Positions 5,459 through 57,046 of a DNA stretch of 59,455 nt are shown piece by piece. The stretch lies in NCBI GenBank assembly GCA_041576015.1, contig JBFGLT010000002.1, positions 1 through 59,455 of the forward strand, read 5' to 3'. The position numbers were made by a program, and so were the translations under genes. Source of the stretch: Acidimicrobiales bacterium (lineage in GTDB: Bacteria > Actinomycetota > Acidimicrobiia > Acidimicrobiales > SZUA-35). How positions within the stretch are numbered: the first letter of the stretch is position 1; each line of letters begins with the position of its first letter. Under the pieces are notes generated by a model. The model had not been told where the DNA came from, did no database searches, and was given only the letters and a program-made list of their open reading frames with translations.

Positions 5459-6775
5459 ATGGAGTTCCGCCGGATCAATCATCTCCCGCCCTATGTGCTC
5501 GGGGTCATCAACGAACTCAAGATGACCGCTCGGCGGGACGGTATCGATGTGATCGATTTCGGATTCGGAAACCCGGATCTCCCGTCGCCCGAGGTGGCGG
5601 TGAACAAGCTCACCGAGGCCGCCGGGAAGGAGCGGAACCATCGCTATTCGGCCAGTCGCGGCATCCCGAAGCTGCGGCTGGCGGCCGCCGACCTCTACCA
5701 ACGGCGTTTCGGCGTCCCGATCGATCCCGACACCGAGGTGATCAGCACGATCGGGGCCAAGGAGGGATTCACCCACCTGATGTGGGTTCTGCTCCAGCCC
5801 GGCGACGCGGCCCTCGTCCCGGCACCGAGCTACCCAATCCACATTTGGGGGCCGATCTTCGCCGGTGCCGCCATCCGGGAGGTCGCCCTCGCCGAGGGGG
5901 ACCAGTTCATCGCCAACCTGGAGCGGGCCTGGGAGTACTCCTGGCCGAAACCCAGAACGCTGGTGATCAGCTTCCCGCACAATCCGACGACGATCTGCGT
6001 CGATCTGGACTTCTTCGTCAAGGTGGTCGACTTTGCTCGCCGGCGGGATCTGATCGTCGTCCACGACAACGCATACGCCGAGTTGGGCTTCGACGGCTAC
6101 CAGCCGCCGTCGATCCTCGAGGTCCCCGGGGCCAAGGACCACTGTGTCGAGCTGTACTCGCTGACGAAGAGCTTCAGCATGGCCGGGTGGCGCGTGAGCT
6201 TTCTGCTCGGGAACCCCGCTGTGGTCGCCGCCCTCGGCAAGCTGAAGAGCTACCTCGACTACGGAACCTTTCAGCCGATCCAGATCGCCGCCACCGTCAC
6301 CTTGAACGAGGCGTCCGAACACCCAAAGCTCGTTCGAGACATCTATCAGAAGCGCCGCGATGTGCTGTGTGAGGGCCTCGGTCGCATCGGCTGGCCGATC
6401 GAGAAGCCCCGCGGCACGATGTTCGTCTGGGCTCCGATCCCCGAGCCGTATCGACATCTCACCTCGCTCGAATTCGCCAGCTTCCTGGTCCGGGAGGCTG
6501 GCGTGGCGACCTCACCGGGCGAAGGATTCGGTCCGGGGGGCGAGGGTTTCGTCCGCTTCGCCCTGATCGAGAACGAACAACGGACCCAGCAGGCGATCCG
6601 CAACCTCAAAAAGGCGCTCCCCGCCCTCGACGGCGGAGCCGACTTCGGCCGAGCGAGGCTAGACGGAGCTGGCGCGTTCGAGACCAACCTCGGTGGCCCA
6701 CGACAGAGCCCGGGACCTCTCGGTCACCACGATCAGCTGGAAATGCTCGGTGAAAGCCTCCAGGCTGAAGAGTAG
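5459..6775 (+). CDS. Class I/II PLP-dependent aminotransferase (AspC/AlaA-like)
   Basis: C-terminal 438 aa of track ORF 4418..6775, starting [21 protein letters not shown]. Motifs NPDLPSP, SFPHNPT and the PLP-lysine motif [14 protein letters not shown]. An alternative ATG lies at 5438. Confidence 0.85.
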
Positions 6776-8317
6776 ATCTTCCACTTCGTCGTCGGTGAGC
6801 TGACCGAAGTGACCGGTCAGAACGACCGGCACCGACGATGTCCCGGCGCTCGCATTGATGCGCTCGAGGTGGGGAAGGAGGTTGTCCAGCGCTTCAGCGG
6901 CGGTCGCCCGCCCCGGCTGTTGGGACCGAGCGATCTGGAGTTGGAGACGCTGGGCCGTGCGGGCGGTGTGCTCGGCCGCTGCTTCCATCTGATCGATCCG
7001 AGCCATGGCCTTGGCGTGCCTCTCGAGCGCCTTCTCGGCCGAAGCGATCTGGTCTTCGATGTCGTCGGGTGCGATCCCGGCCTTCTCCCGAGCGGTTCGT
7101 TCGGTGATCTCGATCCATTCTTCGGCCCACTGGCAGAGGTCACCGGGTTCCATGTTCTGGGGGATGCCGGCGCCGACGGCGGCGAGGGCGTCGTACAGCT
7201 TCTTCAGCCCTTCGATCCAGAGCGGGTTCTCGCGTTCGATCACATGGGTCTCGAGCGCAGCGCCGAGGTCCTCGGGAAGGACCTCACCGAGGTGGGGTTT
7301 GGCCGCCTCGGTGACGGCAGCCCGGTCGTACTCGAGCTCCCGGATGATCGGGTCCAGCGACCGCTGAGCCCGGGCCTCCTCCAGTTCGGCCTGACACCGC
7401 GCCAGGGCGGCGCTGGCAGCGTGGAGAGCGGCCTGCTTGTCCGGGGGTGCCTGCGGGTTCAGGCGGTGCATGGCGTAGGCCGTGTAGGTGGGAACGCCGA
7501 CCTTGGCTAGCAGTACCTCGAGCTCGGCATCCTCGGCGGCCGTGCGATCCCGGGGCCGCTTCTTGCCCCGCTTCTCCACGATCGGATTGGCCAGGTCGTC
7601 CAGCCGTCGTTCGTCCTCGGCGGGCAGGACGATCGGTTTGGCGTCGGCCCGGGCGGCGGCCAGATCGAACTCGGCGGCCTCGACGGCGGCGATGGCGTCC
7701 TCGATCCTGGTTTCGAGTTTGGTGACGTGCGACGCGTGCTTGCGTCGCAGGGCGTCGTAGGTTCGCCACTGGTCGATGAGATCGTCCATCCCGGCGGCTG
7801 ATTCGATCAGCGTCGGCGGCTGCTCCATCACCGTCGACAGCGCGTGGGCGACGGCATTGAGCTTGGCGACGACGCGGGGATCCATCATCTCCCCCGACTC
7901 ACCGGCGAGGTACGTGCGGAGATGCTGCAGGCGGGCGGCGGCCGCCGGGTCGAGGTCGGCCCGAATCATCTCGACGGCGACGGCATCGATCGTCGCCCGG
8001 CGCTGGAGCTGGTCGAGCTCGGCCTGCAAGGCGCTGGGGGCGGTGTCGCCGCCGGCCACGTCGTCGGTGTCGATCACGATGTCTTCGGTCGTCACGGGGC
8101 ATCGGAGCGCCGGCGACGCCGAACCATCGAGTTCGATCAGTCCCTGAGGCGTCTCGACCAACCCGTACACCCCGGAACCGTCACCGTTGGCAAGGGACCG
8201 GGCGGCGTTGATGACGGGCTGGCGGTCGTCGACACCTCGTCGCTGCATCACGGTGAGGAACGGATGCAGGTTCAACGAGCCCGATTGACCACCGAGGTCC
8301 AGACGGAGCAGGCGCAT
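6659..8317 (-). CDS. Coiled-coil protein with SMC/YhaN-like end segments but no Walker A or Walker B motif; function unknown
   Basis: Track ORF 6659..8356. Preferred ATG is 8317 ([24 protein letters not shown]); TTG 8356 is possible. Long A/E/L/R-rich helical middle. C-terminal [40 protein letters not shown] resembles a degenerate Walker B/D-loop region. Confidence 0.6.
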
Positions 8318-8362
8318 GTGGATCCCATCGACCCGATCGCCGGGCGGGTGTAGCAAAACGGG

Positions 8363-12467: not shown

Positions 12468-12759
12468 AGGGCCGACCGACGCACCTGCGGCCGGTGAGTT
12501 CGACACGAGCCGGCGGTGGCGACTGCACCGGCGGGTTGCGCTGCGTCCCGAGCCGTTCGGCGCGATGGCCTACCACTACGACAACCGGCGGCTGAACTTC
12601 ATCCGGTCTCCGGAACTGGTGCAGCTCGTGGAACGACTGAGCGAGTTCGAGACCGCCGATGCAGCACTCGCCGGCCTCGCCCCGACGCGCCGTTCCATTT
12701 TCGCCCGAGCCCTCGGCCGGCTGGCCGCCGGCGACTTCCTCGAACCGGACAGCCAGTGA
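12457..12759 (+). CDS. mftB: Mycofactocin biosynthesis chaperone (PqqD/RRE-type peptide-binding protein)
   Basis: 100 aa. WRLHRRVALRPEPFGAMAYHYDNRRLNFIRSPELVQLVERL is the typical MftB pattern. GTG start overlaps the mftA end by 11 nt, and the stop overlaps the mftC GTG. Confidence 0.8.
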   Translation: MSTEGPTDAPAAGEFDTSRRWRLHRRVALRPEPFGAMAYHYDNRRLNFIRSPELVQLVERLSEFETADAALAGLAPTRRSIFARALGRLAAGDFLEPDSQ

Positions 12760-13874
12760 CCCTCATCGACGACCTGAAGGGCGGACTCGGCGCGCCGATC
12801 TGCTTGACCTGGGAACTCACCTACGCCTGCAATCTGGCCTGCACCCACTGCCTCAGCTCGTCAGGCCGCCGCGATCCCGACGAGCTGACGACCGCAGAGG
12901 CGATCGCCGTCATCGACGAGATGCGCGACATGCAGGTCTTCTACGTGAATCTGGGCGGTGGGGAACCAACTCTGCGGCCCGACTTCTTCGAGTTGGTCGA
13001 GTACGCGACGAGCAGCGGGGTCGGTGTCAAGTTCAGCACCAACGGCAGCCGGATCGGCCCCACCGTGGCAACCAGGTTGGCAGCGATGGACTATCTCGAC
13101 GTCCAGATCTCCCTCGACGGCACCGACGCCGCCACGAACGACAGCGTGCGAGGGTCGGGCTCCTTCGACGACGCCACCGCGGCCATGGAACACCTCGCCA
13201 CGGCTGGCTTCGAACGGTTCAAGATCAGCGTCGTCGTCACCCGTCACAACGTCAGCCAGCTCGACGACTTCCGCTCACTCGCCGATCGGTTCGGTGCCCA
13301 GTTGAGGCTCACCCGGCTGCGACCATCTGGACGTGGTGTCGATTCCTGGCCTGACCTCCACCCCACCCAGGACCAGCAGCGCACGCTGTATCGCTGGCTG
13401 CTCGACCATCCCGACACTCTGACCGGGGACTCGTTCTTCCACCTGAACGCCCTCGGTCCTGAGCGGCTGCCGGGACTGAACCTGTGCGGAGCGGGCCGGG
13501 TCGTGTGCCTCATCGACCCGGTCGGCGACGTGTATGCGTGCCCGTTCGTGCTCCACGAGGCGTTCAAGGCCGGCAACATCCGCCAGCCAGGCGGCTTCGG
13601 AACTATCTGGCGGACGAGCGAGCTCTTCCTCGACCTGCGCCGGCCCGACACCGAGGGGGCCTGCACCGCCTGCGGTCACTACGACGCCTGCCAGGGCGGC
13701 TGCATGGCCGCCAAGTTCTTCACCGGGATCCCGCTCGACCAGCCCGATCCCGAATGCGTCAGCGGACACGGCTCCGCCCTCCTCGCCGGTGTCGAGCCCG
13801 GATCGGTGCCGACGAGCACCAGCGACCACTCGAGACCCGGAGCCGTGCCCGTGCTCCTCAGCGCCCGGCGCTGA
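12756..13874 (+). CDS. mftC: Mycofactocin radical SAM maturase (radical SAM/SPASM)
   Basis: In frame with track ORF 12516..13874, starting at GTG 12756 (VTLIDDLKGGLGAPICLTWELTYACNLACTHCLSS). CxxxCxxC radical SAM motif plus a SPASM Cys cluster (CGAG...CPF...CTACGHYDACQGGCMA). Confidence 0.9.
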   Translation: MTLIDDLKGGLGAPICLTWELTYACNLACTHCLSSSGRRDPDELTTAEAIAVIDEMRDMQVFYVNLGGGEPTLRPDFFELVEYATSSGVGVKFSTNGSRIGPTVATRLAAMDYLDVQISLDGTDAATNDSVRGSGSFDDATAAMEHLATAGFERFKISVVVTRHNVSQLDDFRSLADRFGAQLRLTRLRPSGRGVDSWPDLHPTQDQQRTLYRWLLDHPDTLTGDSFFHLNALGPERLPGLNLCGAGRVVCLIDPVGDVYACPFVLHEAFKAGNIRQPGGFGTIWRTSELFLDLRRPDTEGACTACGHYDACQGGCMAAKFFTGIPLDQPDPECVSGHGSALLAGVEPGSVPTSTSDHSRPGAVPVLLSARR

Positions 13875-29650: not shown

Positions 29651-29754
29651 CGCCGGGTCCGTCCCATCAACTCCATCGTGGACAACCGTAGCCAGGCGAT
29701 GCGACAGATTCGGCGGACCTTCCGCCTGCCGCCGAGGTCCCTTCGCTCAGCCGC

Positions 29755-30108
29755 TCAGCTCAGCAACTCCCGAACCCGGTCCTTGGGTCGCCCGATGATC
29801 GCCCTGTCCTCGGTGACCACCACGGGGCGCTGGAGCAGCTGTTTGTGGGCGACGAGCACCTCGACGATCTGGTCGACGGTTGCCACGTCGGCGTCGGTGA
29901 GGCCCAATTTTTTGAACTTGGCGTCGCGGCGCACGAGCGCGGTCGGCGGGTCCTCCAACTTGGCGATGAGCTCCCGAAGCTCGGCAGCGTCGGGAGGATC
30001 CTTGATGTAGTTGATCTCTTCGAACTCGACGCCCAGTTCTTCGGCAATGCGCACGGCATTGACCGAGGAATTTCAATGTCGATTGTGATAGATCTTCACG
30101 TCGGCCAT
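29755..30108 (-). CDS. ArsC-family (PF03960-type, glutaredoxin-dependent arsenate reductase-like) protein with in-frame TGA at codon 12; predicted selenocysteine protein (alternative: nonsense pseudogene)
   Basis: Track ORF 29755..30054 (MRIAEELGVEFEEINYIKDPP...) lacks the catalytic N-terminus. In the same frame, 7 codons upstream, is TGA (30075..30073), preceded by ATG GCC GAC GTG AAG ATC TAT CAC AAT CGA CAT. Joined product: MADVKIYHNRH-U-NSSVNAVRIAEELG..., 117 aa. The TGA aligns with Cys12 of E. coli R773 ArsC (as I recall it, ITIYHNPACGTSRNTL). The three conserved Arg positions are kept (LVRR, LQRPVV, IGRPKD). Confidence 0.6.
30037..30070 (-). promoter_or_regulatory. Candidate bacterial SECIS stem-loop directly 3' of the in-frame UGA
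   Basis: mRNA: UGA-AA-UUCCUCGG-U-CAAUGC-[CGUGC]-GCAUUG-CCGA-A-GAA. 6-bp upper stem, bulged U in the 5' arm, GG/CC pairs below, lower stem UUCCUC/GA-A-GAA, and GU in the 5-nt apical loop about 17 nt after UGA. As I recall it, the E. coli fdhF SECIS has the same layout (GG-U-UGCA[GGUC]UGCA-CC). Folded by eye only. Confidence 0.5.
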
Positions 30109-30156
30109 GCCTCGACCGTATCGGAGGCCGGCGCGACCAGCGAGTAGCCTGATCCA

Positions 30157-31311
30157 GTGCACCCCGAGCGACCCGGTCCTCCGTCGTCGCCGCCGCCGGC
30201 TCCATCGGTGCCCCGCACGCCGGCGGGCTGGTATCAGGATCCGTGGGGGCTGGCGCAGTGGCGATGGTGGGATGGTTGGGCGTGGACGGGTCATATCTCG
30301 GTGAACCAGGAGCGCAAGCCGATGCTGGCCGGGTGGCTATCGTGGCCGGTCGTGGCCGGCGGGCTCTTCGCGGTGCCGGCGGCGATCGTGCTCAGCTTCT
30401 CCAGCCCACTGGCAATCGCCCTCGCCTTCGTCCCGCTCCTGATCGTGGGACCGGTGCTCGGCTGGCTCGACCGGGTCGAACCCGAACCGCGCCAAGCCAG
30501 AGTGCACGCGTTTCTCTGGGGGGCGACGATCTCGGGCGTCGTCGCCGGCACGATCAACAGCATCGTCTTCGCCGCCTTCAGTGAGACGTGGGCGGCGGTG
30601 GTGTCGGCCCCGATCACCGAGGAGATCATGAAGACGGCCGGGATCGTGTGGGCCCTGCGCCGCGGCGAGATCGACGGGGTCATGGACGGGGTCGTCTACG
30701 CCGGTTGGGTGGCGCTCGGCTTCGCGGTCGTCGAGAACTTCCTGTACTTCGCCGAGGCCGACAACCAGGATCTGCTGTGGCAGACCTTCGTCGCCCGCGC
30801 TCTGGTGACCCCGTTCGCCCACCCGTTGTTCACCGTGTGGGCCGGTCTGGCGATCGGTCGGGCCGTCGCCCGGCAGGTGTCCGTCCTCTTCCAGCTTGGC
30901 TGGGCACTGCCGCTCGCCGTCCTCAGCCATGCCGCCTGGAACGGGTCGCTGACCTTGGCCGAGGATGACGAAGTGGCACTGATCGTGGCCGTTCCCGCCT
31001 TCTTCGCCCTGTTCGTGGCGGCCGGGCTGACGGTCACGATCGTCCGGCGAAACGAGCAGGCGCACTTCGTCCGGCTCGTGCCGACGATCGCCCGGCGCTA
31101 TGGGCTCAGCGCAGAGGAGGTCGCCATCTTCGGCGACTGGCGTTCGATGCTCCGCACCCGCCGCCGCCTGCCCCGCAAACGGCGGGCCGCCTTCGATGCG
31201 GTGCACAGGAACCTGGCCCGCCTGGCCGCCCTCCATCATCGACCGGGCAGCTTCGATTCGGCCGCCGAGGCCGTGCTCGTCAACCGCCTCCAACGAGCCC
31301 GCGCCGGCTGA
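30157..31311 (+). CDS. PrsW-family intramembrane metalloprotease with N-terminal DUF2510-like motif
   Basis: PAGWYQDPWGLAQWRWWDGWAWTG (DUF2510 pattern), then multiple TM helices with EEIMKTAG and FAVVENFLYF, typical of PrsW. Start uncertain (GTG 30208 possible). Confidence 0.8.
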   Translation: MHPERPGPPSSPPPAPSVPRTPAGWYQDPWGLAQWRWWDGWAWTGHISVNQERKPMLAGWLSWPVVAGGLFAVPAAIVLSFSSPLAIALAFVPLLIVGPVLGWLDRVEPEPRQARVHAFLWGATISGVVAGTINSIVFAAFSETWAAVVSAPITEEIMKTAGIVWALRRGEIDGVMDGVVYAGWVALGFAVVENFLYFAEADNQDLLWQTFVARALVTPFAHPLFTVWAGLAIGRAVARQVSVLFQLGWALPLAVLSHAAWNGSLTLAEDDEVALIVAVPAFFALFVAAGLTVTIVRRNEQAHFVRLVPTIARRYGLSAEEVAIFGDWRSMLRTRRRLPRKRRAAFDAVHRNLARLAALHHRPGSFDSAAEAVLVNRLQRARAG

Positions 31312-40733: not shown

Positions 40734-41099
40734 ATGATGAGTTCGCTGCTGGTGCACGTCACCCATGGTCCGGAGGCGCCGACTCGCGCCGCTCTCGCCT
40801 GCCTCGTCGCGCAAGCGGCAATGGATGAGGGCCACGACGTCTCGTTGTTCTTCGCCGGTGATGGTGCGCAGCTCCTACGTGACGCATCGCTCGAGTCCGT
40901 CCAGGGGGTGGGAACCGGGTCCCTGGGATCGGCCCTTCGTGCCCTGGTCGCCGCTGGCGTTCCGATCTACGTCTCCGGCATGTCGGCGAAGGCGCGCGGT
41001 GTCAAGGAATCCGATCTGGAGAACAAGGGTGCCTCCTTCGCCATGCCGGCGAAGCTGGTCGAACTGACCTTCGCAGCCGACCGGGTTCTCTGCTACTGA
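40734..41099 (+). CDS. DsrE/DsrF-like family protein
   Basis: 121 aa. LLVHVTHGPEAPTRAALACLVAQAAMDEGHDVSLFFAGDG...IYVSGMSAKARGV. The position usually held by the active Cys is Ser here. Confidence 0.65.
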   Translation: MMSSLLVHVTHGPEAPTRAALACLVAQAAMDEGHDVSLFFAGDGAQLLRDASLESVQGVGTGSLGSALRALVAAGVPIYVSGMSAKARGVKESDLENKGASFAMPAKLVELTFAADRVLCY

Positions 41100-45673: not shown

Positions 45674-47857
45674 TCAGTCGAGATCGAAGCGGTCGTTCTC
45701 CATGACCTTCACCCAACCGGAAACCAACTTGTCGAGGAACAGCTCGTCGCCTCCGTTGGCGGCGTATTCCTCAGCGATGGCCCGGAGCTGGCTGTTGGAC
45801 CCGAATACGAGATCGACCCGAGTTCCGGTCCACTTCAGGTCACCGGTGGCCCGGTCGCGTCCGTCGAACACATCCTCGGCTTCGCCCACGGCGGTCCAGC
45901 GCGTGCTCATGTCGAGCAGGTTGGTGAAGAAGTCGGTCGTCAGTTGACCGGGACGATGCGTCAGCACACCGTGACCCTCGGGGCCGGCGTTGGCGCCCAG
46001 CGCCCGAAACCCACCGACGAGGGCCGTCATCTCCGGCGCCGACAGGTTCAACATGAACGCCTTGTCGATCAGCAGATGTTCGGCCGGGACGGCGTCCTGC
46101 TTGCCGAGGTAGTTCCGGAACCCGTCGGCCTTCGGTTCGAGGTAGGCGAACGACTCGACGTCGGTGCTGTCCTGGTCGGCATCGGTCCGACCCGGCGTGA
46201 ACGGCACGCTGATGTCGTAGCCGGCGGCCTTGGCGGCGCTTTCGAGGGCCGCCGAACCGCCGAGGACGATGAGATCGGCCAGCGAGACCTGCGGACCGCC
46301 CTTGCCGTTGAACTCGCTGCGGATCTCCTCCAGCTTGGCGATCACCGAGCCGACCCCGGCTTGGATGTTCACGTCCCAGCTCGCCTGAGGCTCGAGGCGG
46401 ATTCGTGCGCCGTTGGCACCGCCGCGGAAGTCCGTGCGACGGTAGGTCGATGCCGACGCCCACGCCGTGTTGACCAACCGCTCGACGGTGAGGCCGGAGT
46501 CCAGAACGAGCGACTTCAGCTCGGCGATCTCGGCATCACCGATCATCGGTCCCTCGTGGGCCGGAACGTTGTCCTGCCAGACGAGTTCCTCGTCGGGGAC
46601 CTGGGGACCGACGTAGCGAATGGCCGGCCCCATGTCACGGTGCAGGAGCTTGAACCAGGCCCGGGCGAACGCGTCGGCGAGCTGATCGGGGTTCTCCCGG
46701 AATCGCTTGGAGATCTCCAAGTAGGCCGGATCGGTGATCATCGCCATGTCGGCGGTGGACATCGTGGGCTTGGTCTCGGGCGCCCCGGGCTCCACCGGTG
46801 GCACCATGAAACCGTCCTTGACCTCGCGCGGCTGCCACTGCTTGGCGCCGGCGGGCGACTCGACGACCTCCCATTCGTGGGAGAAGAGGGTTTCGAGGTA
46901 CTTGTTGTCCCACTGGGTGGGGGTCGGTGTCCAGGCGCCTTCGAGGCCGGAGGTCACGGTGTACTGTCCGAGGCCGGTCTCGTGGGTGTTGACCCAACCG
47001 AGACCCTGCTCGGACAGGCCGGCACCCTCGGGCTCCGAGCCGACCAGCTCGGCGGGACCGTTGCCGTGCATCTTTCCGAACGTGTGACCGCCGATGGTGA
47101 GCGCGACGGTCTCCTCGTCGTTCATCGCCATGCGCCCGAATGTCTCGCGGATGTCCTGCGCCGATGCCAGCGCATCCGGAATGCCGTTGGGGCCCTCGGG
47201 ATTGACGTAGATGAGACCCATCTGGACAGCGGCGAGCGGGTTGGCCAGCTCGCGTTCTCCGGAGTAGCGCTGGTCGCCGAGCCACTCGTTCTCGGGGCCC
47301 CAGTAGATGTCGTCCTCGGGCGCCCAGATGTCGGGCCGCCCGAACGAGAACCCGAACGTCCTGAAGCCCATGGTCTCGAGTGCCCGGTTCCCGGCGAACA
47401 CGAGGAGGTCGGCCCACGAAATGGCTTTGCCGTACTTCTGCTTGATCGGCAGGAGGAGGCGGCGGGCCTTGTCGAGGTTGCCGTTGTCAGGCCAGGAATT
47501 CAGCGGGGCGAAGCGCTGCGCGCCGGTCCCGGCACCGCCACGGCCATCGGTGACACGGTACGTGCCGGCGGCATGCCAGCTCATCCGGATCATGAAGCCG
47601 CCGTAGTGGCCCCAGTCAGCCGGCCACCAATCCTTGGAATCGGTCATGAGGGCGTCGACGTCGCGGGTCAGTTCGTCGATGTCGATCCCGGCAACCGCGC
47701 TGCGATAGTCGAAATCCGGCTCGAACGGGGTGGAACTCGGATGGTTCTGGTGGAGGATCCGCAGGTTGAGCTGATTCGGCCACCACTTTTCGTTTGACTG
47801 AGCCTCGCCGGAGGTGAGCGAGCCCCATTCGGGGGTGCGGGTTGAACTGTCGGTCAT
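45674..47857 (-). CDS. katG: Catalase-peroxidase
   Basis: Residue 59 onward of track ORF 45674..48031 ([12 protein letters not shown]...) behind AGGAGA. Contains [13 protein letters not shown] (distal His/Trp) and [12 protein letters not shown] (proximal His). Two-domain length of 727 aa. Confidence 0.92.
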
Positions 47858-47934
47858 GGTTCTCCTGTGGTTGATTCTCGGTCGGTTGGGTGGGGTTTCT
47901 GGTGAGCGAGGGCCTCGGTGAGGAGTCCCTGGGC

Positions 47935-48357
47935 TCAGGTGTCCGAGGCCCGGCACTCGGGACAGGTGCCCCAGTAGATCACCTCGGCCTCGTGAACATC
48001 GAACTGCCAGTCCTCGGCCGGTGTCAGACAAGGAGTCTCGCCGACCGCGCAGTCGACGTCGACCAGACGGTCGCAGCTCTGGCAGATGAGATGATGGTGG
48101 TTGTCGCCAACCCGGCCTTCGTACCGGGTCGGCGAACCCGCCGGCTGAATGCGCCGGATGATGTCGTGCTCGGCGAGAACGGTCAACGTGTCGTACACCG
48201 ACTGCTGAGAGATCGCCCCGATCTCGGACCGGACCGCGTGGGCGACCTCGTTGGCAGTGCTGTGGGGATGGGCGTTGACTGCTCGGAAGACGGCGAGCCG
48301 CTGGGCCGTGACTTGGACGGCGTGGTCGCGGAGCACCGTTGCGGGGTCGACGGGCAC
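47935..48357 (-). CDS. furA: Fur-family transcriptional regulator (FurA/PerR-like), upstream of katG
   Basis: Track ORF 47935..48483 trimmed to GTG 48357, giving 140 aa. Winged helix ([11 protein letters not shown]...STANEV), [17 protein letters not shown]...CPEC metal sites. furA-katG order as in mycobacteria. Confidence 0.8.
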
Positions 48358-48694
48358 GAACGCAGTCTTGTACCGATTCTGGACTGAGTCAAATCCTGTG
48401 CATCGACCAGCGAGCACGTCTCGGCTCTCGCGCAAGCCCCCTACGAGCGCACTGTCCAACCGGGAGATGCCCGAGCAGGCCACCGGATGACCCAGCCATG
48501 CACCCGCACTCGTTCGGCATCATCGACGGCAAATCGAGATTCGGTTGCAGGTCGATCACGGCAACCTCCGATGCCGGGTACGCCCGGGAGTAGTAGCCAA
48601 CGGATCGGGCCGATCGACGAGCCAGACCGGCGCTGGAGTGAGAAGAGGGTGCGGGGGTACGCTCGGTTCGTCCACGATCTCAGGAGAGTCAGAC

Positions 48695-49414
48695 ATGCCG
48701 AAGCTGGTTGGGTACCACCGCCCGAGCTCGGCTGCGGAGGCGATCTCCCTCCTCGGCAGCTCGCGGCGGATCGCGCTCGCCGGTGGCACCACAGTCCGCC
48801 ACGACGTCGGAGGTGAGCCCGTCGAACTGGTCGACCTCCAGACACTCGGTCTGAGCGCCGTCGCCGCCGAGAGGGGTCGCTGGACCCTCGGAGCGATGCT
48901 CCGGCTCGACCAGATCGTCGACGATTCCGCGCTCCCCGATCTGATCCGCTGGGCGGCCCGCCGCGAGCTGCCGAGCACACTGCGGACGTTGGCCACCGTC
49001 GGCGGAACGGTCGGCGCCGCCGATCCCGAGAGTGTGCTGCTCGCCGCCCTGCTGGTCCATGACGCAGTGGTGCGGTTCGCCGACGACACGTCCCGTCCGC
49101 TCGCCGACGTGCTCGATTCCGGTGTCGGCGACGCAGAGCTGATCGTGGCGGTCGAGATCGACGGCTCCGGGCGAAGCGCGCACGCTGTGACGGGGCGAAC
49201 CCCGGCCGACACGCCCATCGTGGCCGCCCTCGGGAGGACGGGGGCCGACGGTGCACTCACGCTTGCGCTCACCGGCGTCTCCACGAAGCCGGTACTGGTT
49301 GATCCCGACGCGATGCACAACCTGAGCCCGCCGAGCGACTATCGGGGATCGTCCGCCTACCGACGCCATCTGGCGGTGGTGCTGTCCACCAGGGTTCGTG
49401 AGGAGTTGGCGTGA
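48695..49414 (+). CDS. FAD-binding subunit of a xanthine dehydrogenase-family molybdenum hydroxylase (YgfM/CoxM-like)
   Basis: Residue 51 onward of track ORF 48545..49414 (MPKLVGYHRPSSAAEAISLL...ALAGGTTV...) behind AGGAGAG. C-terminal YRGSSAYRRHLAVVL is typical of the flavoprotein C-domain. Confidence 0.8.
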   Translation: MPKLVGYHRPSSAAEAISLLGSSRRIALAGGTTVRHDVGGEPVELVDLQTLGLSAVAAERGRWTLGAMLRLDQIVDDSALPDLIRWAARRELPSTLRTLATVGGTVGAADPESVLLAALLVHDAVVRFADDTSRPLADVLDSGVGDAELIVAVEIDGSGRSAHAVTGRTPADTPIVAALGRTGADGALTLALTGVSTKPVLVDPDAMHNLSPPSDYRGSSAYRRHLAVVLSTRVREELA

Positions 49415-52359
49415 TCACCATCGCCATCGAGCTGAACGGCGATGCCGTCGACGTCGAGGTCGCGCCTCACGAGTCACTCGCGGTCGTCCTCCGGCGGCTG
49501 GGCATGTTCAGCGTGAAGTACGGGTCGGACACCGGAGAGACCGGGGCGGCGGCGGTCCTGCTCGACGGCCGGCTGGTGTCATCGGACGTCATGCGGGCTG
49601 CGCAGGCCGACGGGCATGTGATCACCACCGTCGAGGCGCTCGACACCGAACGCGGCCTTCACGACCCGATCCAGGTCGCATTCGCCGCGACAGGAGCGCT
49701 GCAGTCGGGCTACTCGGCCGGGGCGATGGTGCTCGGCGCGCATGCGCTCTTGGCAAGGGATCCCGATCCGTCCGAGGAAGCGATTCGCGACATGCTGTCG
49801 GGCATTCTCGACCGAGAGACCGGCTACGTGAAGCCGGTCGAGGCCATCAAGCGGGCGGCCGCTGCCCTCCGCCGCCAGGCCGTTCCACCCTTCGAGCCGA
49901 TCGCCGTCACCTCGCTCACCGATGGTAGGCACCCCGCCGAGGTGGATCCCGCCGACCGGCCCCCGGACGGCTCCCCTGCAATCCCTCGTGTGGTGCCATC
50001 GCGGGACGTACCGGCGACTGCTGTCGTCGGCAAGCCCGAGGTCAAGGTCGACGCGCTCAAGCTGGCCAAGGGCAACCCGGCGTTCACCGACGACATCGAG
50101 TTGCGCGGAATGCTCTTCGCCAAGGTGCTGCACAGCCCGCACGCCCACGCCCGGATCGTCGCCATCGACGACGCACGGGCTCGGGCGCTGCCGGGGGTCC
50201 ACGCCGTGCTCCACCACGGCAACACCCCGCGGGTCAAGTACGCCTCGGGCGGGCAGTCGTGGCCGAATCCACATCCCTACGATCAGGTGAGCTTCGATGA
50301 CAAGGTGCGACATGTCGGTGACCGTGTCGCCGCCGTCGCCGCCGAAACCGTCGAGATCGCCGAGGAGGCCATCGGGCTGATCGATGTCACCTACGAGGTG
50401 TTGCCGGCGGTGTTCGACGAACTGGAGGCAATCTCTCCCGGCGCCCCGGTGATCCACGACGAAGACGACACCACCGAGATCTACGATCGCGATCGCAACA
50501 TCGTTCACCGATTCCACGCCGAGCGCGGCGACGTCGAGGCGGCGCTGGCCGGGGCCGCTCACGTTCACCAGAGCACCCACCGGGTGCACCAGGTGCAGCA
50601 GGTGCCGATCGAGCCACACGTGTCGATCGCCTGGCTGGATTCCGACGAACGGATGGTCGTTCGCACGGCCACCCAAGTCCCGTTCCACACCCGCCGGATG
50701 CTGGCGCCACTGATCGGGATGGACGTGAAGGACATTCGGGTTATCAAGCCACGGATCGGCGGCGGCTTCGGGGCGAAGCAGGAGATGTTGATCGAAGACA
50801 TCGTCGCCCATCTGGCACTGGCCACCCGCCGCCCCGTCCGGCTGGAGCTCACTCGCGAGGAGGAGTTCTGGGCGAGCCGCACACGACACCCGCAGACGAT
50901 CACGTTTCGCACCGGCGTCGACGAGGATGGCAACCTCGTGGCCCAGCACATGCATGTGGTCGGGAACACCGGCGCCTACGGCACACACGGTTACACCGTC
51001 CAGGCGGTCAGCGGCCTGCGGGGTCTGACCTCGTACAACTGCCCGAACAAGCGCTTCGACTGCGACGTCGCGTATAGCAACATCCCCGTCCCCGGCGCCT
51101 ACCGCGGCTACGGCGCCCCGCAGGGGCTCTTCGCCCTCGAGGTCCACCTCGAGGATCTCGCCCACCGGCTGGGGCGCGACCCGCTCGAGTTCAAGCGTCA
51201 GAACTGGGTGACGCTCGGCGACGAGCTGAACATCGCCCCCCACATCGGCGAACGGGCGACCGATGAGGATCTCGTGCTCGACGAGTACCCCAAGGTCACC
51301 TCCACCGGCATCGAGGAATGCGTCGCCCAAGGGCAGCGCGCCATCGGCTGGCATCGCCGTCTCGACCCCGCCTGGCGAGAGCCGGTCGACCGGCCGAACA
51401 TCCGGCGCGGACTCGGATTCGCCTTCTGCATGCACGGTTCGGGCATCCCGTTTCTCGACATGGGTGGATGCAGCATCAAACTCAACGACGACGGATCGTT
51501 CAACCTCCTGATCGGGGCGACCGACCTCGGGACCGGTGCCGACACGGTGCTCGGTCAGATCGCCGCCGAGGTGCTCGGAGTACGTCTCGAGGATGTCATC
51601 GTGTACTCCTCAGACACCGACATCACGCCGTTCGACACCGGCGCCTATGCCTCGTCGACGACATACATCTCGGGTACGGCGGTGTTGCGGGCCGCCGAGG
51701 CGGTCCGCTCCCGCATCAAGGAGCGGGCCGCCGAGATGCTCGGAGTCAGCGAGCCGTGCACGATCGAGTTGCGGGGCCGCCGGGCGTGGGCGCCTGACGG
51801 CCGGTCGGTGACGTTGGAGGAGCTTGCTCATCACACCCTGCACTGGGAGGACCAGGAGCAAATCATGGCGAGCGCGTCCTACATGTCCCCTGAGTGCCCA
51901 CCGCCGTTCGCCGCCCAGTTCGTCGAGGCCGAAGTCGACATCGACACCGGCCAGGTGGAGGTGACAAAGCTGGTCATGGCGGTCGACTGCGGTGTTGCGA
52001 TCAATCCCGTCACCGCCTCGGGCCAGGTCGAGGGCGGCATGACCCAGGCGCTCGGGTACGCCCACTGCGAGGAGATGGTCTACGACGCTGCGGGGCGGAT
52101 GCTGAACGACCGGCTCGGCCCGTACAAGATCTACCGCGCCGACGAGATGCCGGCCACCGCCGTGTTTCTCGTACAGACGATGGAGGATTCCGGGCCCTTC
52201 GGCGCCAAAGCGGTCGCCGAGATCCCCAAGGATGGCGTTGCTCCGGCGATGCGCAACGCCATCCTCAACGCCACCGGCGTGCCGATCGACGATCTGCCCT
52301 TCACCCCCGAGCGGGTGTGGACTGCACTGCAGGCGGCACAACGCTCGGTGACGACCTGA
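49411..52359 (+). CDS. XdhD-like fused subunit: cysteine-less 2Fe-2S-like module plus molybdopterin-binding catalytic domain
   Basis: 982 aa. The GTG overlaps the upstream stop (GTGA). Aldehyde oxidase/xanthine dehydrogenase a/b-hammerhead and MoCo-binding motifs (IGGGFGAKQE, GAYRGYGAPQG, TGADTVL, GPFGAKAVAE). The N-terminal ~160 aa align to the 2Fe-2S subunit but contain no Cys. Confidence 0.85.
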   Translation: MITIAIELNGDAVDVEVAPHESLAVVLRRLGMFSVKYGSDTGETGAAAVLLDGRLVSSDVMRAAQADGHVITTVEALDTERGLHDPIQVAFAATGALQSGYSAGAMVLGAHALLARDPDPSEEAIRDMLSGILDRETGYVKPVEAIKRAAAALRRQAVPPFEPIAVTSLTDGRHPAEVDPADRPPDGSPAIPRVVPSRDVPATAVVGKPEVKVDALKLAKGNPAFTDDIELRGMLFAKVLHSPHAHARIVAIDDARARALPGVHAVLHHGNTPRVKYASGGQSWPNPHPYDQVSFDDKVRHVGDRVAAVAAETVEIAEEAIGLIDVTYEVLPAVFDELEAISPGAPVIHDEDDTTEIYDRDRNIVHRFHAERGDVEAALAGAAHVHQSTHRVHQVQQVPIEPHVSIAWLDSDERMVVRTATQVPFHTRRMLAPLIGMDVKDIRVIKPRIGGGFGAKQEMLIEDIVAHLALATRRPVRLELTREEEFWASRTRHPQTITFRTGVDEDGNLVAQHMHVVGNTGAYGTHGYTVQAVSGLRGLTSYNCPNKRFDCDVAYSNIPVPGAYRGYGAPQGLFALEVHLEDLAHRLGRDPLEFKRQNWVTLGDELNIAPHIGERATDEDLVLDEYPKVTSTGIEECVAQGQRAIGWHRRLDPAWREPVDRPNIRRGLGFAFCMHGSGIPFLDMGGCSIKLNDDGSFNLLIGATDLGTGADTVLGQIAAEVLGVRLEDVIVYSSDTDITPFDTGAYASSTTYISGTAVLRAAEAVRSRIKERAAEMLGVSEPCTIELRGRRAWAPDGRSVTLEELAHHTLHWEDQEQIMASASYMSPECPPPFAAQFVEAEVDIDTGQVEVTKLVMAVDCGVAINPVTASGQVEGGMTQALGYAHCEEMVYDAAGRMLNDRLGPYKIYRADEMPATAVFLVQTMEDSGPFGAKAVAEIPKDGVAPAMRNAILNATGVPIDDLPFTPERVWTALQAAQRSVTT

Positions 52360-52369
52360 GCAGGCCGGC

Positions 52370-53152
52370 GTGGTGACCGACGGCGACCTTCTCCACGCCG
52401 TCGTCGATGCGATCGACGACGGCGTTCCGGTGGCGGTGGCGACGGTCGTGCGCACTCGCCGGTCCGTCCCCCGTCGCGCCGGCGCAAAGATGCTCGTGTT
52501 CGACGACGGGCGACAGCTCGGCACCGTCGGCGGTGGTGAGCTCGAACAGCGAGTCGCCGGCGCAGCGCGCCACGCGTTGATGACCGGCCGCCCTGTCATG
52601 CTCGACATCGATCTCGTCGATCCGGCTCGCGGCGATGCGGGTGTCTGCGGCGGGTCGGTTTCTGTTTATGTGGAGCCCATCATGCCCCGTCCCCATGTCG
52701 TCGTCATCGGCTGCGGCCACGTCGGAGTCGCGGTCGTGCAGCTCGCTCACTGGCTTGGCTGTCGAGTCACGGCGATCGACGACCGCGAGGACGTCGCGGA
52801 CCCCGCCCGTCTGGGCGATGCCGACGTCGTTCTCGCCGGCCCACTCGTCGAGTCAGTGGCGAAAGCCGGGATCGACAGGCGGAGCCACGTCGTGCTCGTG
52901 ACACGTAACGTCAGCCTCGACGTCGAGGTTCTCGCCGACGTCCTCCAGACCCCGGCGCGTACGATCGGGGTGATGGGCAGCGCCCGCCGCTGGGCCACGG
53001 CTCGTGCCCAGCTCGCCGAGCTCGGGGTGAGCGAGGAGCACCTGGCGCGAGTCGCCTCGCCCATCGGTCTCGAGATCGACGCCGAAACCCCCGAGGAGAT
53101 CGCGCTGTCGATCTTGGCTGAGATCGTCGAGGGGTGGCGAGAACAGAGATGA
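52370..53152 (+). CDS. XdhC/CoxI-family molybdenum hydroxylase accessory protein
   Basis: 260 aa. VATVVRTRRSVPRRAGAKMLV...GTVGGGELE and the Rossmann-like VVVIGCGHVGVAV are typical of XdhC. Confidence 0.8.
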   Translation: MVTDGDLLHAVVDAIDDGVPVAVATVVRTRRSVPRRAGAKMLVFDDGRQLGTVGGGELEQRVAGAARHALMTGRPVMLDIDLVDPARGDAGVCGGSVSVYVEPIMPRPHVVVIGCGHVGVAVVQLAHWLGCRVTAIDDREDVADPARLGDADVVLAGPLVESVAKAGIDRRSHVVLVTRNVSLDVEVLADVLQTPARTIGVMGSARRWATARAQLAELGVSEEHLARVASPIGLEIDAETPEEIALSILAEIVEGWREQR

Positions 53153-53967
53153 CGGCGCCCTGGGTGCGACCCGAGCTGTGCGTCCTGCGCGGCGGCGGAG
53201 ACCTGGCAACCGGGGTGGCGTGGCGACTCACCCGGGCCGGCTGGCCGGTCGTCGTGTGCGAGCTGCCGGCACCGCTCACCGTTCGCCGAACGGTCGCAGT
53301 GTCGACCGCAGTGCTCGACGGCGAGGTGGACGTCGAGGGAATGCGAGCGGTACGCGTCGAGCAGGTCGACGACGCACCGGCGGTCGCCCGAAGCGGCCTG
53401 GTGGCCGTGGTGGTGGCGACGGCGCTGCCGCCATTCGAGGCCGATGTCGTCGTCGACGCCCGGGTCGCCAAGCGGAACCTCGACACGCGGATCGACGATG
53501 CGCCGATGGTCGTGGCCCTCGGACCCGGATTCGTAGCCGGGGTCGACTGTCACGCGGTGGTCGAAACGAAGCGGGGGCCACACCTCGGCCGAGTGTTCTG
53601 GACCGGTGCCGCGGCGCCCGACACGGGCACACCAGGCGTTGTCGAGGGCAGAGGTGCCGTGCGGGTTCTGCGTGCCCCGGTCGCCGGCCGGGCGCGGTGG
53701 CACGCTGCGATCGGCGATCTCGTAGCTGCCGGAGTTGCGCTCGGGGAGGTCGATGGCGTCCCAGTTCGAGCCCCTTTCGATGGGACCGTTCGCGGGCTGA
53801 TCAGCGAGGCGGTCCAGTTGACGCCCGGGCTCAAGATCGGCGACATCGATCCACGGCGCGCCGGCGTCGCGTCCGACGAGATCTCCGACAAAGCCTTGGC
53901 GGTCGGCGGAGGCGTGGTGGAGGCGGTTCACGCATGGCTCCGCCAAACGGTGGAGGAGCATGCTTGA
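53149..53967 (+). CDS. yqeB: YqeB-family (EF2563-type) selenium-dependent molybdenum hydroxylase system protein
   Basis: ATG 53149 overlaps the xdhC stop (ATGA). LCVLRGGGDLATGVAWRLTRAGWPVVVCELPAPLTVRRTVAVSTAV...DKALAVGGGVVEAV matches my recollection of the TIGR03309 family pattern. XdhC plus this ORF together correspond in size to E. coli YqeB. Confidence 0.7.
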   Translation: MTAPWVRPELCVLRGGGDLATGVAWRLTRAGWPVVVCELPAPLTVRRTVAVSTAVLDGEVDVEGMRAVRVEQVDDAPAVARSGLVAVVVATALPPFEADVVVDARVAKRNLDTRIDDAPMVVALGPGFVAGVDCHAVVETKRGPHLGRVFWTGAAAPDTGTPGVVEGRGAVRVLRAPVAGRARWHAAIGDLVAAGVALGEVDGVPVRAPFDGTVRGLISEAVQLTPGLKIGDIDPRRAGVASDEISDKALAVGGGVVEAVHAWLRQTVEEHA

Positions 53968-54670
53968 CCCGTCCCCGATCACAGAGGTGGCGAACCGCCT
54001 CGGGCTCGGCTCCCACGAGCTGATCGCACTGGTCGGGGGCGGCGGCAAGACGACGATGCTGTTCGCCCTCGGGCACCAGCTGGCGGGCAAGGTCGTAATG
54101 ACGACGACGACCAAGATGGGTCGCGACCGAACCGGTGGCTACCCAGTTCTGGTACAACCAACCGACGATGAGCTGGCAGAGGCGCTCGCTGAGCATCGCC
54201 GGATGCTGGTGTGGGGTGCCGTCGCAGTACACAAGGTCGCAGGCGTAACCCCCGACCGTTGCGACCGCTGGTTCGATGTCGTCGATCATGTCGTCGTCGA
54301 AGCAGACGGATCCCGCCAGCTACCGTGCAAGGCACCCGGACCCTTCGAGCCGGTGATGCCGAGTCGCACGACAACAGCGATCGTCTGCGTCGGCGCAGGT
54401 GCTTTCGGACGGGTGATCGCCGACTGCTGCCACCGCCCGCTGCGGGTTGCAGCGCTGGCCGGTTGCTCGCCCTACGAGCGGCTCACACCAATCCGCCTGG
54501 CTCGGGTACTGCTCAGTCGGCGAGGGGGCCGCAAGGGTGTACCGCCGGGCGCGCGATTCACCATCGTGCTCACCCAAGTGGCGGCCGCCGAGCGTCCGTT
54601 TGTCGAAGAGTTCGTCCAGACGGTCGACGGAGCCGCGACCGTGGTCGCCGTCGAACCCTCGTTCGTGTAG
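53960..54670 (+). CDS. yqeC: YqeC-family selenium cofactor/hydroxylase accessory protein
   Basis: 236 aa behind GGAGGAG. LIALVGGGGKTTMLFALGHQLAGKVVMTTTTKM and VVEADGSRQLPCKAPGPFEPVMP match my recollection of the TIGR03172 pattern. 8-nt overlap with yqeB. Confidence 0.7.
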   Translation: MLDPSPITEVANRLGLGSHELIALVGGGGKTTMLFALGHQLAGKVVMTTTTKMGRDRTGGYPVLVQPTDDELAEALAEHRRMLVWGAVAVHKVAGVTPDRCDRWFDVVDHVVVEADGSRQLPCKAPGPFEPVMPSRTTTAIVCVGAGAFGRVIADCCHRPLRVAALAGCSPYERLTPIRLARVLLSRRGGRKGVPPGARFTIVLTQVAAAERPFVEEFVQTVDGAATVVAVEPSFV

Positions 54671-54813
54671 GAGCGGACTTCCTCAGCCACCACGGTGCGA
54701 ACGCCTCGAGTACCTCGGCCCACCGAGCATGGCGATGGGTTACCAGAAGATGAACTGTGGCGTGTACCCATTCGAGCGGCTGCGTTCTACCATCGACTTC
54801 GACCACGAAGGGG

Positions 54814-55317
54814 GTGTTCTTGGATTCGGACTCGCTGCGCGCGACCCAGGCTCCACTGAAGCAGAGGTATCGCGACGATCCGGACGCAGCGGTCATCACG
54901 CTGTCGGCTTCAGGGTCGGTCGATGACGGCGCGATCTCCTGCAACGTCGACACTGGACGGGCGCTCGTCACCGCTGGGCTGCATCCGGCGACCGGGGGTT
55001 CTGGACTCGAGGCGTGTTCGGGAGACATGTTGCTCGAGGCGCTCGTCGCGTGCGCCGGCGTCACACTCAAGGCGGTGGCGACTTCGATCGGCGTCCAGCT
55101 CAAAGCAGCGGAAGTACGGGCCGAGGGAGACCTCGATGTTCGGGGCACGCTGGCTGTCGATCGCGACGCACCCGTCGGGTTTCGAGAGATACGGCTTTCG
55201 TTCGACATCAACAGTGACGCCGACCAGGAGCAGCTCGATCGACTGCTGACCCTGACCGAACGCTACTGCGTGGTCTTGCAGACGTTGCGTCGAGCCCCGG
55301 ACGTCGCTCTGTCGTAG
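54814..55317 (+). CDS. OsmC-family peroxiredoxin-like protein
   Basis: Track ORF 54757..55317. Start likely GTG 54814 or TTG 54820 (…DSDSLRATQAPLKQRYRDDP). Both conserved Cys are present (LEACSGDML, TERYCVVLQTL). Confidence 0.7.
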   Translation: MFLDSDSLRATQAPLKQRYRDDPDAAVITLSASGSVDDGAISCNVDTGRALVTAGLHPATGGSGLEACSGDMLLEALVACAGVTLKAVATSIGVQLKAAEVRAEGDLDVRGTLAVDRDAPVGFREIRLSFDINSDADQEQLDRLLTLTERYCVVLQTLRRAPDVALS

Positions 55318-55720: not shown

Positions 55721-57046
55721 TCAGAAAGGCTCGGCGAGTTCTCGTGCCCGCCGATACTCGGCGAGATCGTGTTGTCGTCGTCGTTCGCGCTCTCGGGCTT
55801 CGGTCTTGGCTCGGTGGTGCAAGGGGCACAAGGGCTCTCCGTTGTCGGAGTCGGTGTGGCCACCGTCCTGCCATTCGGTTCGGTGGTCGATGGCACACCA
55901 CCGGGCCGGTCTTCGACACCCTGGTGCCTGGCAGTGCCTGTCCCGCCAGATGACCGCGTCGCGGGCAGCGCCGCCGAACAACCGCTGAGTTCGACCCAGA
56001 TCGACCCGTCTCGACGGGCTGTGGATCACGCACCGTGCGATCCTGTGATCCAGTGCGATCCGGAACGCCTGCTCGCGGCCGACCGGGTCACCGTCGAGGG
56101 TCTCGCAGGTGTGCCCGGGCCGGAACACCGGATCGGGCCCACCCGACAACTCGCCATGAGCCCAACGGTCCTTCTCGGCAGTGAAGGTCACCGAATCCAT
56201 CAACACGACCAGCAGGGGTTCGGGGGTCTTGCCGGCCTCGGGAACGACCAGGGCCCGTTCGGCCAGATGGGAGATCGCTCGGGCCATGAAGTAGCGGTGC
56301 CCCCGTCGCAGGACCGGACGCAACGTGTACTCGCTGATCGTGTAGTCGAAGCGATCCCCGTCGGCATCGACACCCGGATCGACCACGCCATCTTCACCTG
56401 AGCCGCCGCCAGCCTCCCGGCGTTCTTGCTCCCTGAGTTGATCCGCTATTCGATGCAAGGCCTCTTTGAACACGAGCGCATCGGTTGTCGGGACCAACCC
56501 GGTGAGCGACGTGGTCCCATCGAGATGCTCGGTGAAGTCGATCCCCAGATCTTTGTCCTCGGGGGCTTTCGCATGCGGGTCTGCGTCGTCGCAGAGCAGC
56601 ACCCAGGCCCGGCACAACTTGATCCAGTCGTCATAATCATGTTCTCGAGCCAGCTGAACCAACCCATGGTGATGAGCGTCGAACATCTCTGCCCTGTGGA
56701 CCGTCCGCCGGGCTGGGACCATCCTGGCCAGCATGTCGAGATGATCGGTGGTCAAGGTGTGGTCTTCCACGCCCTCTGCGATCCCGGCAAATCGGTCGAT
56801 CAGCCGGGCGCGTCGCACCGTCCGCGTGACAGAGCCCTTCGCTCGATTCGACTCGGCCGCCAGCCATGACGCCGGATTATGGAATCGGGTGTCGCCCAAT
56901 CCCCCGCTGTCGGCCAGTTCCATGGTCAGGGTGCCGATCAAGCAATCGAGCTGATCGCGAATCGAGCACAACTCGACGATCTGTTTCGGCACGTCGAGAT
57001 GGGCCGACCGCTCGAGTCGATCTCGGATCTTTTCGATGACCGCCAT
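55721..57046 (-). CDS. DUF222 / HNH endonuclease-signature protein (REP13E12-like family)
   Basis: 441 aa. N-terminal DUF222-like region. C-terminal RDRHCQAPGCRRPARWCAIDHRTEWQDGGHTDSDNGEPLCPLHHRAK is the HNH motif typical of the actinobacterial 13E12 repeat family. Confidence 0.8.
   Translation of the reverse strand: MAVIEKIRDRLERSAHLDVPKQIVELCSIRDQLDCLIGTLTMELADSGGLGDTRFHNPASWLAAESNRAKGSVTRTVRRARLIDRFAGIAEGVEDHTLTTDHLDMLARMVPARRTVHRAEMFDAHHHGLVQLAREHDYDDWIKLCRAWVLLCDDADPHAKAPEDKDLGIDFTEHLDGTTSLTGLVPTTDALVFKEALHRIADQLREQERREAGGGSGEDGVVDPGVDADGDRFDYTISEYTLRPVLRRGHRYFMARAISHLAERALVVPEAGKTPEPLLVVLMDSVTFTAEKDRWAHGELSGGPDPVFRPGHTCETLDGDPVGREQAFRIALDHRIARCVIHSPSRRVDLGRTQRLFGGAARDAVIWRDRHCQAPGCRRPARWCAIDHRTEWQDGGHTDSDNGEPLCPLHHRAKTEARERERRRQHDLAEYRRARELAEPF

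Follow-up and report, generated by a model that had tools for sequence, protein, structure and literature searches.

A predicted selenocysteine-containing ArsC-family reductase, with a near-invariant hairpin core behind its in-frame UGA, in an Acidimicrobiales contig

How should a gene be read when a UGA stands at the very codon where its family carries the catalytic cysteine? The question is raised by a locus on the minus strand, at 29755..30108, of a 59,455-nt stretch of contig JBFGLT010000002.1 from an Acidimicrobiales bacterium (assembly GCA_041576015.1; this whole stretch is referred to below as the window), where two open reading frames (ORFs) become a single gene for a reductase of the ArsC family if the UGA between them is read through. 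A preliminary description, made from the letters of the window, had proposed a protein containing selenocysteine (Sec). Having followed up that proposal, we consider it very probable that 30108..29755 is a genuine gene for a 117-residue selenoprotein with the ArsC fold, in which Sec takes the place of the nucleophilic Cys12. The case is built on the position of the UGA in the active site, on the conservation of the UGA and of the reading frame on both sides of it among relatives, and on a hairpin in the messenger directly behind it. We refer to the predicted gene and its product as Sec-ArsC, and to homologues that have cysteine at this position as Cys forms.

Reading frame and active site

The features of the locus that are needed for the argument are as follows.

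29755..30108, minus strand: predicted Sec-ArsC coding sequence, a PF03960 reductase of 117 codons plus a TGA stop (ATG at 30108..30106, TGA at 29757..29755), with the motif U-N-S-S
30073..30075, minus strand: in-frame UGA, read as Sec residue 12, on the catalytic Cys12 of R773 ArsC
30073..30294, minus strand: upstream 73-aa ORF from the ORF list, with the C-terminus ...MADVKIYHNRH
29755..30054, minus strand: truncated 99-aa ORF with an internal GTG start that lies within the hairpin; the product that gene callers report in place of the full gene

Translation of 30108..29755 on the minus strand gives one frame, MADVKIYHNRH-stop-NSSVNAVRIAEELG...LLS-stop, in which the TGA at 30075..30073 is the sole internal stop; with the C-terminal part written out further it reads MADVKIYHNRH-stop-NSSVNAVRIAEELGVEFEEINYIKDPP...RVRELLS-stop. 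The gene begins ATG GCC GAC GTG AAG ATC TAT CAC AAT CGA CAT TGA AAT TCC TCG GTC AAT GCC GTG CGC ATT GCC GAA GAA and ends AGC TGA, so that six sense codons (NSSVNA) lie between the internal TGA and the GTG that the ORF finder takes as a start. The sequence, the ORF list and the translation thus bear out the two ORF pieces, their coordinates, the six codons and the total of 117 codons as they had first been described. A scan for promoters and terminators around the gene found none.

For profile searches a Cys was put in place of the UGA. The product then matches Pfam ArsC (PF03960) over residues 7-114 with 52.9 bits (cut-off 24), and its best NCBIfam model is TIGR00014, arsenate reductase (glutaredoxin), with residues 4-116 lying on positions 1-114 of the 114-position profile. 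Alignment to known structures pairs residues 1-116 with R773 ArsC (1I9D/1JZW, E ~3e-14), and 3RDW is matched with E = 1e-17. At residue 12 the alignment sets IYHNPACGTSRN of R773 ArsC against IYHNRH-U-NSSVN of the window protein, and all 49 full-length homologues from the database have Cys at the UGA column; the placement of the TGA on the nucleophile Cys12, as previously proposed, is thereby confirmed. The same alignment to 1JZW/1I9D shows Ser15, Arg60 (ALVR), Arg94 (LLQR) and Arg107 (IIGRP) to be kept, in agreement with the earlier statement that the Ser at +3 and three Arg equivalents are retained. Compared with R773 ArsC, then, the fold, the length (residues 1-116), the position of the nucleophile and these four residues are the same; the two proteins differ in the sequence around the nucleophile (HNRH-U-NSS in the window, HNPA-C-GTS in R773 ArsC), and the window gene lies outside an arsRBC-type operon.

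It could be argued instead that the true product is the 99-aa protein starting at GTG 30054, with the 11 upstream codons belonging to an unrelated small ORF or leader, and this is what both the ORF finder and public annotations report. Such a protein would lack both the nucleophile and the first beta-strand that belong to the ArsC fold, however, and every relative conserves the IYHN motif upstream in this frame. Moreover, the internal GTG is not conserved as a start but is a Val codon within the frozen hairpin described below, and gene callers pick differing starts in this region (99, 100 or 102 aa). We regard a separate 99-aa product as very unlikely.

The reading as a full-length Sec-ArsC gene instead makes the short calls a matter of annotation. 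NCBI assembly GCA_041610795.1 annotates a 99-residue product for this gene, just as had been predicted for standard pipelines, and the proteins found as homologues fall into two groups, Cys forms of full length (117-120 aa) and many calls of 99-102 aa that start right after the UGA; the latter make up about 27 clusters among the best 120 matches. A different mis-annotation of the same gene is seen in a protein cluster from ENA contigs (P0003, 16 member sequences), where a full-length call of 121 aa has W at the Sec column (FHNKYWNSSVNAV); evidently a genetic code that reads UGA as Trp was applied to that contig. In the window itself UGA is the stop codon of 23 of the 26 family-identified ORFs, the Sec-ArsC gene included, and there is therefore no genome-wide reassignment; any recoding must be local. 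The Sec-ArsC gene is systematically truncated to 99 aa in public assemblies, and because of this mis-annotation the selenoproteomes of Acidimicrobiia and Vicinamibacteria would be under-counted.

Conservation of the UGA and of the frame

A species-level scan with one genome per species gave 80 related loci, and TGA is found at the Sec codon in 79 of them. Most come from Acidimicrobiia (Acidimicrobiales, Ilumatobacteraceae and Microthrixaceae), among them the cultured strain Ilumatobacter nonamiensis YM16-303 (L071); the others are from Vicinamibacteria (including complete chromosomes), one Planctomycetota metagenome-assembled genome (MAG) and two Gammaproteobacteria MAGs. The TGA is also present on low-GC contigs where TonB receptors are the neighbours. 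When Cys forms were used to seed a metagenome scan, 79 classifiable loci were obtained, 78 with TGA and 1 with TGC, and since both scans rank by similarity to the query, these counts do not give the relative abundance of Sec and Cys forms. The orthologue alignment that the preliminary description called for therefore gives a column that is Cys in the full-length database homologues and TGA in 79/80 genome and 78/79 metagenome loci.

The simplest dismissal of the UGA would be a sequencing or assembly error that turned TGC or TGT into TGA, a caveat which had been raised at the outset. Two independent assemblies of this species, NCBI GCA_041610795.1 and the Logan assembly of SRR25158358, have the identical TGA, as do more than 150 other sequences, which leaves the chance of such an error negligible.

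Among 153 distinct UGA-form genes, the ten upstream codons keep their residues (Ile 99%, His 100%, Asn 100%) and vary synonymously (ATC/ATT/ATA, CAC/CAT, AAC/AAT), and the 105 downstream codons likewise keep residues while their codons vary. Because residues are kept and codons vary on both sides of the UGA, the segment must be translated in one frame. A decaying pseudogene, or a recent nonsense UGA at which translation ends without a functional product, might be suspected from the way in which gene callers split the locus into 73-aa and 99-aa ORFs, and from the existence of a related locus that lacks the N-terminal segment (L059). Against this, more than 150 distinct sequences, drawn from several phyla, have the UGA at this very codon, both flanks show retained residues with synonymous change, the UGA forms are free of other disruptions, of frameshifts and of a ratio of nonsynonymous to synonymous change (dN/dS) near 1, and the catalytic Ser and Arg residues are intact. 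As judged from these alignments, purifying selection on a continuous frame excludes both a pseudogene and a separate 99-aa product, and we hold decay of the gene to be extremely improbable, as had been argued before from the retained active-site residues.

Locus L059 itself (Vicinamibacterales CBDAOD010000003.1, ~2980-3300) is the sole one of the 80 without the UGA. Its hairpin core and downstream ORF are intact, and its N-terminal IFHN..U segment is exchanged for unrelated sequence; it is probably a 5'-truncated remnant.

In a neighbour-joining tree the Sec and Cys forms are interleaved, and the resolution offered by a 117-aa protein is too low for Sec/Cys switches to be counted. The Vicinamibacteria copies form a clade of their own and have host-like, low-GC codon usage. 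The genes from the two Gammaproteobacteria MAGs (L040 and L060) nest within the Ilumatobacter clade and that from the Planctomycetota MAG (L039) stands beside the Acidobacteriota clade, and these placements point to either binning contamination or recent horizontal transfer.

A hairpin behind the UGA

The preliminary description had also drawn a hairpin resembling the selenocysteine insertion sequence (SECIS) of E. coli fdhF.

30037..30070, minus strand: SECIS-like hairpin, nt +6 to +39 from the U of UGA; lower helix UUC.CUCGG / CCGA.GAA, bulged U, 6-bp stem CAAUGC/GCAUUG, loop CGUGC
30045..30061, minus strand: 17-nt hairpin core CAAUGCCGUGCGCAUUG, consisting of the upper stem plus its loop, which contains G22 and U23; near-invariant in all UGA forms

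That hairpin is the minimum free energy structure of the 42 nt from the UGA, UUC.CUCGG-U-CAAUGC[CGUGC]GCAUUG-CCGA.GAA, at -14.9 kcal/mol with z = -4.2 and none of 200 shuffled sequences as stable; longer stretches give the same fold with weaker scores (z = -1.2 for 61 nt and -2.0 for 45 nt). When the structure is laid over 73 distinct sequences, 85% of its cells are paired, compared with 23-52% when the 3' partner is slid along, and the loop bases G22, U23 and G24 are invariant. The pairs of the upper stem are either invariant or changed on one side only. Substitutions there are few and mostly compatible with wobble pairing (AGT for AAT yields G·U, and GTT for GTC yields U·G), with one A·C mismatch, in L073.

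The strongest evidence comes from synonymous codon choice. In the 153 UGA-form genes, codons in and around the upper stem and loop are used as follows, with numbering relative to the UGA.

Codon +1, Asn: AAC 139, AAT 12
Codon +5, Asn: AAT 145/145
Codon +6, Ala: GCC 153/153
Codon +7, Val: GTG 153/153
Codon +8, Arg: CGC 150/150
Codon +9, Ile: ATT 152/153
Ile elsewhere in these genes: ATC in about 85-90%
Neighbouring Ser, Ala, Glu, Leu and Gly codons: synonymous entropy of 1-2 bits

Only codon -1 and codons +5 to +9 have a synonymous entropy that is zero or close to it. In seven distinct Cys forms, the same N-A-V-R-I stretch is written with AAC, GCC/GCG, GTT/GTC/GTG, CGG/CGC/AGG and ATC. We regard this synonymous freeze of the upper stem and loop, confined to the UGA forms, as the decisive RNA-level evidence, and on these alignments conservation of the UGA and of the hairpin core greatly exceeds what chance would give. 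The core occurs once in the window.

Codon -1, a His (30078-30076, minus strand), is CAT in 144 of 145 UGA forms, and the other His codons are CAC (145:8 and 150:2); a conserved U thus stands directly 5' of the UGA, outside the hairpin.

Several results at the RNA level stand on the other side. Neither RNAalifold nor explicit pair counting found compensatory covariation in the 73 sequences, so that the hairpin, for which a check of covariation had been proposed, shows no detectable covariation but is conserved by invariance, and the RNA evidence therefore rests on invariance. At the wobble positions of the lower helix, pairing does not exceed that in shuffled columns (covariation score 0.042 vs 0.041), and this helix arises as a side effect of coding for Ser-Ser ... 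Ala-Glu-Glu. Of two Cys forms that were folded, one, L173, can form a different and more stable hairpin at the same place (-18.8 kcal/mol), and thermodynamic stability alone is therefore not diagnostic. Finally, no Rfam SECIS family is found in 29700..30300 at E up to 10, the only match being a chance one to a microRNA; the SECIS models of Rfam cover bacterial elements poorly, a point also made in a 2026 preprint (bioRxiv 10.64898/2026.04.03.716425).

For comparison, the E. coli fdhF SECIS sequence was confirmed against 5,419 E. coli genomes and then folded. Both hairpins lie within the coding region a few nt past the UGA, both 45-mers fold at -14.9 kcal/mol, and both have an unpaired U on the 5' arm below the upper stem; the loop G and U, at +23/+24 in fdhF, are at +22/+23 in the window hairpin, a shift of 1 nt, and are invariant across the 73 sequences. 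The two differ in the upper stem and loop, which are 3-4 bp and (A)GGUC(U) in fdhF but 6 bp and CGUGC in the window, as well as in the distance from the unpaired U to the loop (7 nt in the window vs 4-5 nt in fdhF), and they have no primary-sequence similarity. About 20% of the family moreover lack the unpaired U, having ACC, AGC or some other codon at +4 in place of GTC or ATC. Of the fdhF-like features first listed, the loop G and U hold throughout the family and the bulged U does not.

Selenium use, substrate and relation to known families

We infer the dependence on SelB and tRNA-Sec, the incorporation of selenium and the use of arsenate as substrate, and the mechanism proposed here follows the established bacterial Sec pathway. 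The hairpin, beginning 5 nt past the UGA, would offer its apical stem-loop (CAAUGC-CGUGC-GCAUUG, with G22 and U23) to SelB as the ribosome nears the UGA; SelB would bring Sec-tRNA(Sec) to the UGA, and translation would proceed without termination. The resulting selenolate at residue 12, together with Ser15, Arg60, Arg94 and Arg107, would then attack an oxyanion, most likely arsenate, and the enzyme could be recycled by a partner of the thiol/glutaredoxin type.

Whether the organism uses selenium is addressed by a second locus of the window.

48545-49414, plus strand: FAD subunit of an XDH-family molybdenum hydroxylase
49411-52359, plus strand: fused Fe-S/Mo subunit of the same type of enzyme
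52370-53152, plus strand: XdhC
53134-53967, plus strand: YqeB (TIGR03309, 288 bits, cut-off 220)
53960-54670, plus strand: YqeC (TIGR03172, 159 bits, cut-off 73)

The joint presence of YqeB and YqeC is a published signature of the SelD-dependent selenium-cofactor trait (PMC5029168), and their presence in the window indicates selenophosphate use and would imply SelD. The preliminary description had spoken of a selenium-dependent molybdenum hydroxylase operon in the window, and YqeB and YqeC are indeed found adjoining XdhC and an XDH-family enzyme; selenium-specific models, however, give the subunits of the hydroxylase itself scores under their cut-offs. This selenium-cofactor trait cluster (48545-54670, plus strand) has no adjacent selD.

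Other results count against our reading. There is no SelA, SelB or SelD among the scanned ORFs of the window and no tRNA was found in it by ARAGORN, and a tblastn search of about 670 kb of related loci with E. coli SelA, SelB and SelD gave nothing, a weak negative that covers only this much DNA. Nor did ARAGORN report a tRNA gene of any kind, tRNA-Sec included, in these loci, but none at all is fewer than so much DNA should contain, and this negative is doubtful. The best NCBIfam match of the product, to TIGR00014, reaches 96.3 bits and so falls short of the curated equivalog/trusted cut-off of 106.05, and almost all selenoprotein families of this sort rest on bioinformatic prediction, with functions largely uncharacterized (PMC13188914).

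The failure to find Sec machinery in the window or in the related loci searched lends some weight to a reading in which the UGA is recoded to Cys or Trp, by a UGA-reading tRNA or by near-cognate read-through, rather than to Sec. In some bacteria, UGA codons of selenoproteins have been described as naturally recoded from Sec to Cys, and the comparative data speak to read-through and to the need for the hairpin, not to the identity of the inserted residue. On the other hand, the frozen hairpin, with its loop G and U at +22/+23 placed as are G23 and U24 of the fdhF SECIS, looks like a signal of the SelB type, YqeB and YqeC show selenophosphate use, and for the insertion of Cys a plain TGC or TGT would be simpler, the Cys forms having indeed lost the constraint on the hairpin. 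The Sec machinery is also universal in another order of the Acidimicrobiia, with selA, selB, selC and selD present in all 84 complete Actinomarinales genomes (bioRxiv 10.64898/2026.04.03.716425); this 2026 preprint, which gives context only, was the sole report found when the literature was searched for Sec machinery in Ilumatobacter or Acidimicrobiia. Insertion of Cys or Trp seems very unlikely.

Two further ORFs of the window were considered as a second selenoprotein and rejected, each being an uninterrupted Cys form: an OsmC-like ORF at 54757-55317 (plus strand; LEACSGD, ERYCVV) and a DsrE/TusC-like ORF at 40734-41099. The OsmC-like ORF has a weak match to the NCBIfam model 'OsmC-related (seleno)protein' (43 bits, cut-off 95).

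If residue 12 of Sec-ArsC is Sec, the substrate is the next question. Judged by the residues of its active site, the enzyme would act on arsenate or on an oxyanion like it. In Acidimicrobiia the gene adjoins a PrsW protease, recC-recB-recD and sbcCD in varying order, and on Vicinamibacteria-like contigs it stands beside DUF6265 and TonB-dependent receptors. Over the five contexts seen, the neighbours are PrsW, RecBCD, SbcCD, NUDIX, AhpC-like, DUF6265 and TonB receptors, and no ars genes (arsR, arsB/ACR3) are near it, an absence that also tells against our reading; arsenate as substrate is therefore unproven. No ars neighbours were seen for the Cys forms either. We consider the chances that arsenate is the physiological substrate to be evenly balanced. 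A more speculative proposal, which we advance only tentatively and think rather doubtful, is that the Sec-ArsC of this clade is a stand-alone housekeeping selenol reductase and serves no role in arsenic detoxification, and that the gene and its frozen 17-nt core have moved between at least Actinomycetota and Acidobacteriota, perhaps also Planctomycetota and Gammaproteobacteria. Were this so, one apical hairpin would be read by the SelB proteins of very different phyla.

Sec-ArsC proteins are not new. In 2005 Zhang, Fomenko and Gladyshev described 15 new selenoprotein families from the Sargasso Sea, among them 'Arsenate reductase' (COG1393, UxxS), with 14 sequences and a predicted SECIS (PMC1088965), and the Global Ocean Sampling (GOS) survey of Zhang and Gladyshev in 2008 counted 77 Sec and 784 Cys sequences (PMC2398784); the statement in the preliminary description that such proteins were known from metagenome surveys was right. 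Reviews of 2022 and 2026 tabulate the family with the representative MBT3519430.1 and TIGR00014 (PMC9312934, PMC13188914), and the 2026 paper on the BSepDB database uses the ArsC selenoprotein family as an example. Likened to it by motif and family assignment, the window gene is, on this evidence, a further member of the known family 'Arsenate reductase (ArsC) 1' (UxxS, pfam03960/COG1393/TIGR00014). The two share the Pfam/COG family, Sec at the catalytic Cys, the U-x-x-S motif (U-N-S-S in the window), abundant Cys homologues and a stem-loop with G in a small apical loop directly after the UGA, and nothing essential is different. The published sequences are anonymous marine reads or MAG proteins, whereas the window gene comes with 59 kb of Acidimicrobiia context. 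'Arsenate reductase 2 / arsenate reductase-like protein' (cd03032/NF041106) is likewise a selenoprotein of the ArsC/Spx superfamily from marine metagenomes, but it has UxxC and belongs to another subfamily; the window protein has UxxS and no match to NF041106.

No new principle is therefore claimed, the family, its UxxS motif and a SECIS-like hairpin having been published in 2005. What is added here is a quantified RNA-level constraint on the 17-nt core, the spread of the UGA-form gene over 79 species-level genomes that include a cultured strain and Vicinamibacteria, the want of an ars-operon context, the interleaving of Sec and Cys forms in a tree of low resolution, and confirmation of the truncation by public pipelines. 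The frozen core may serve as a very specific DNA signature with which such genes can be found and corrected, and I. nonamiensis YM16-303 would be a tractable organism for a first biochemical test of Sec-ArsC.

Some other genes of the window may be recorded in passing. Two long ORFs with high GC at third codon positions (GC3), at 6659-8356 (minus strand, 565 aa) and 55721-57046 (minus strand, 441 aa), match neither Pfam nor NCBIfam at E <= 1e-5. At 12516-13874 on the plus strand lies a gene for MftC, a radical-SAM maturase of mycofactocin (TIGR03962, 596 bits). Beside the molybdenum hydroxylase cluster, the stretch 45674-48483 (minus strand) holds a KatG catalase-peroxidase (1164 bits) with a regulator of the Fur/PerR family (47935-48483) directly upstream.

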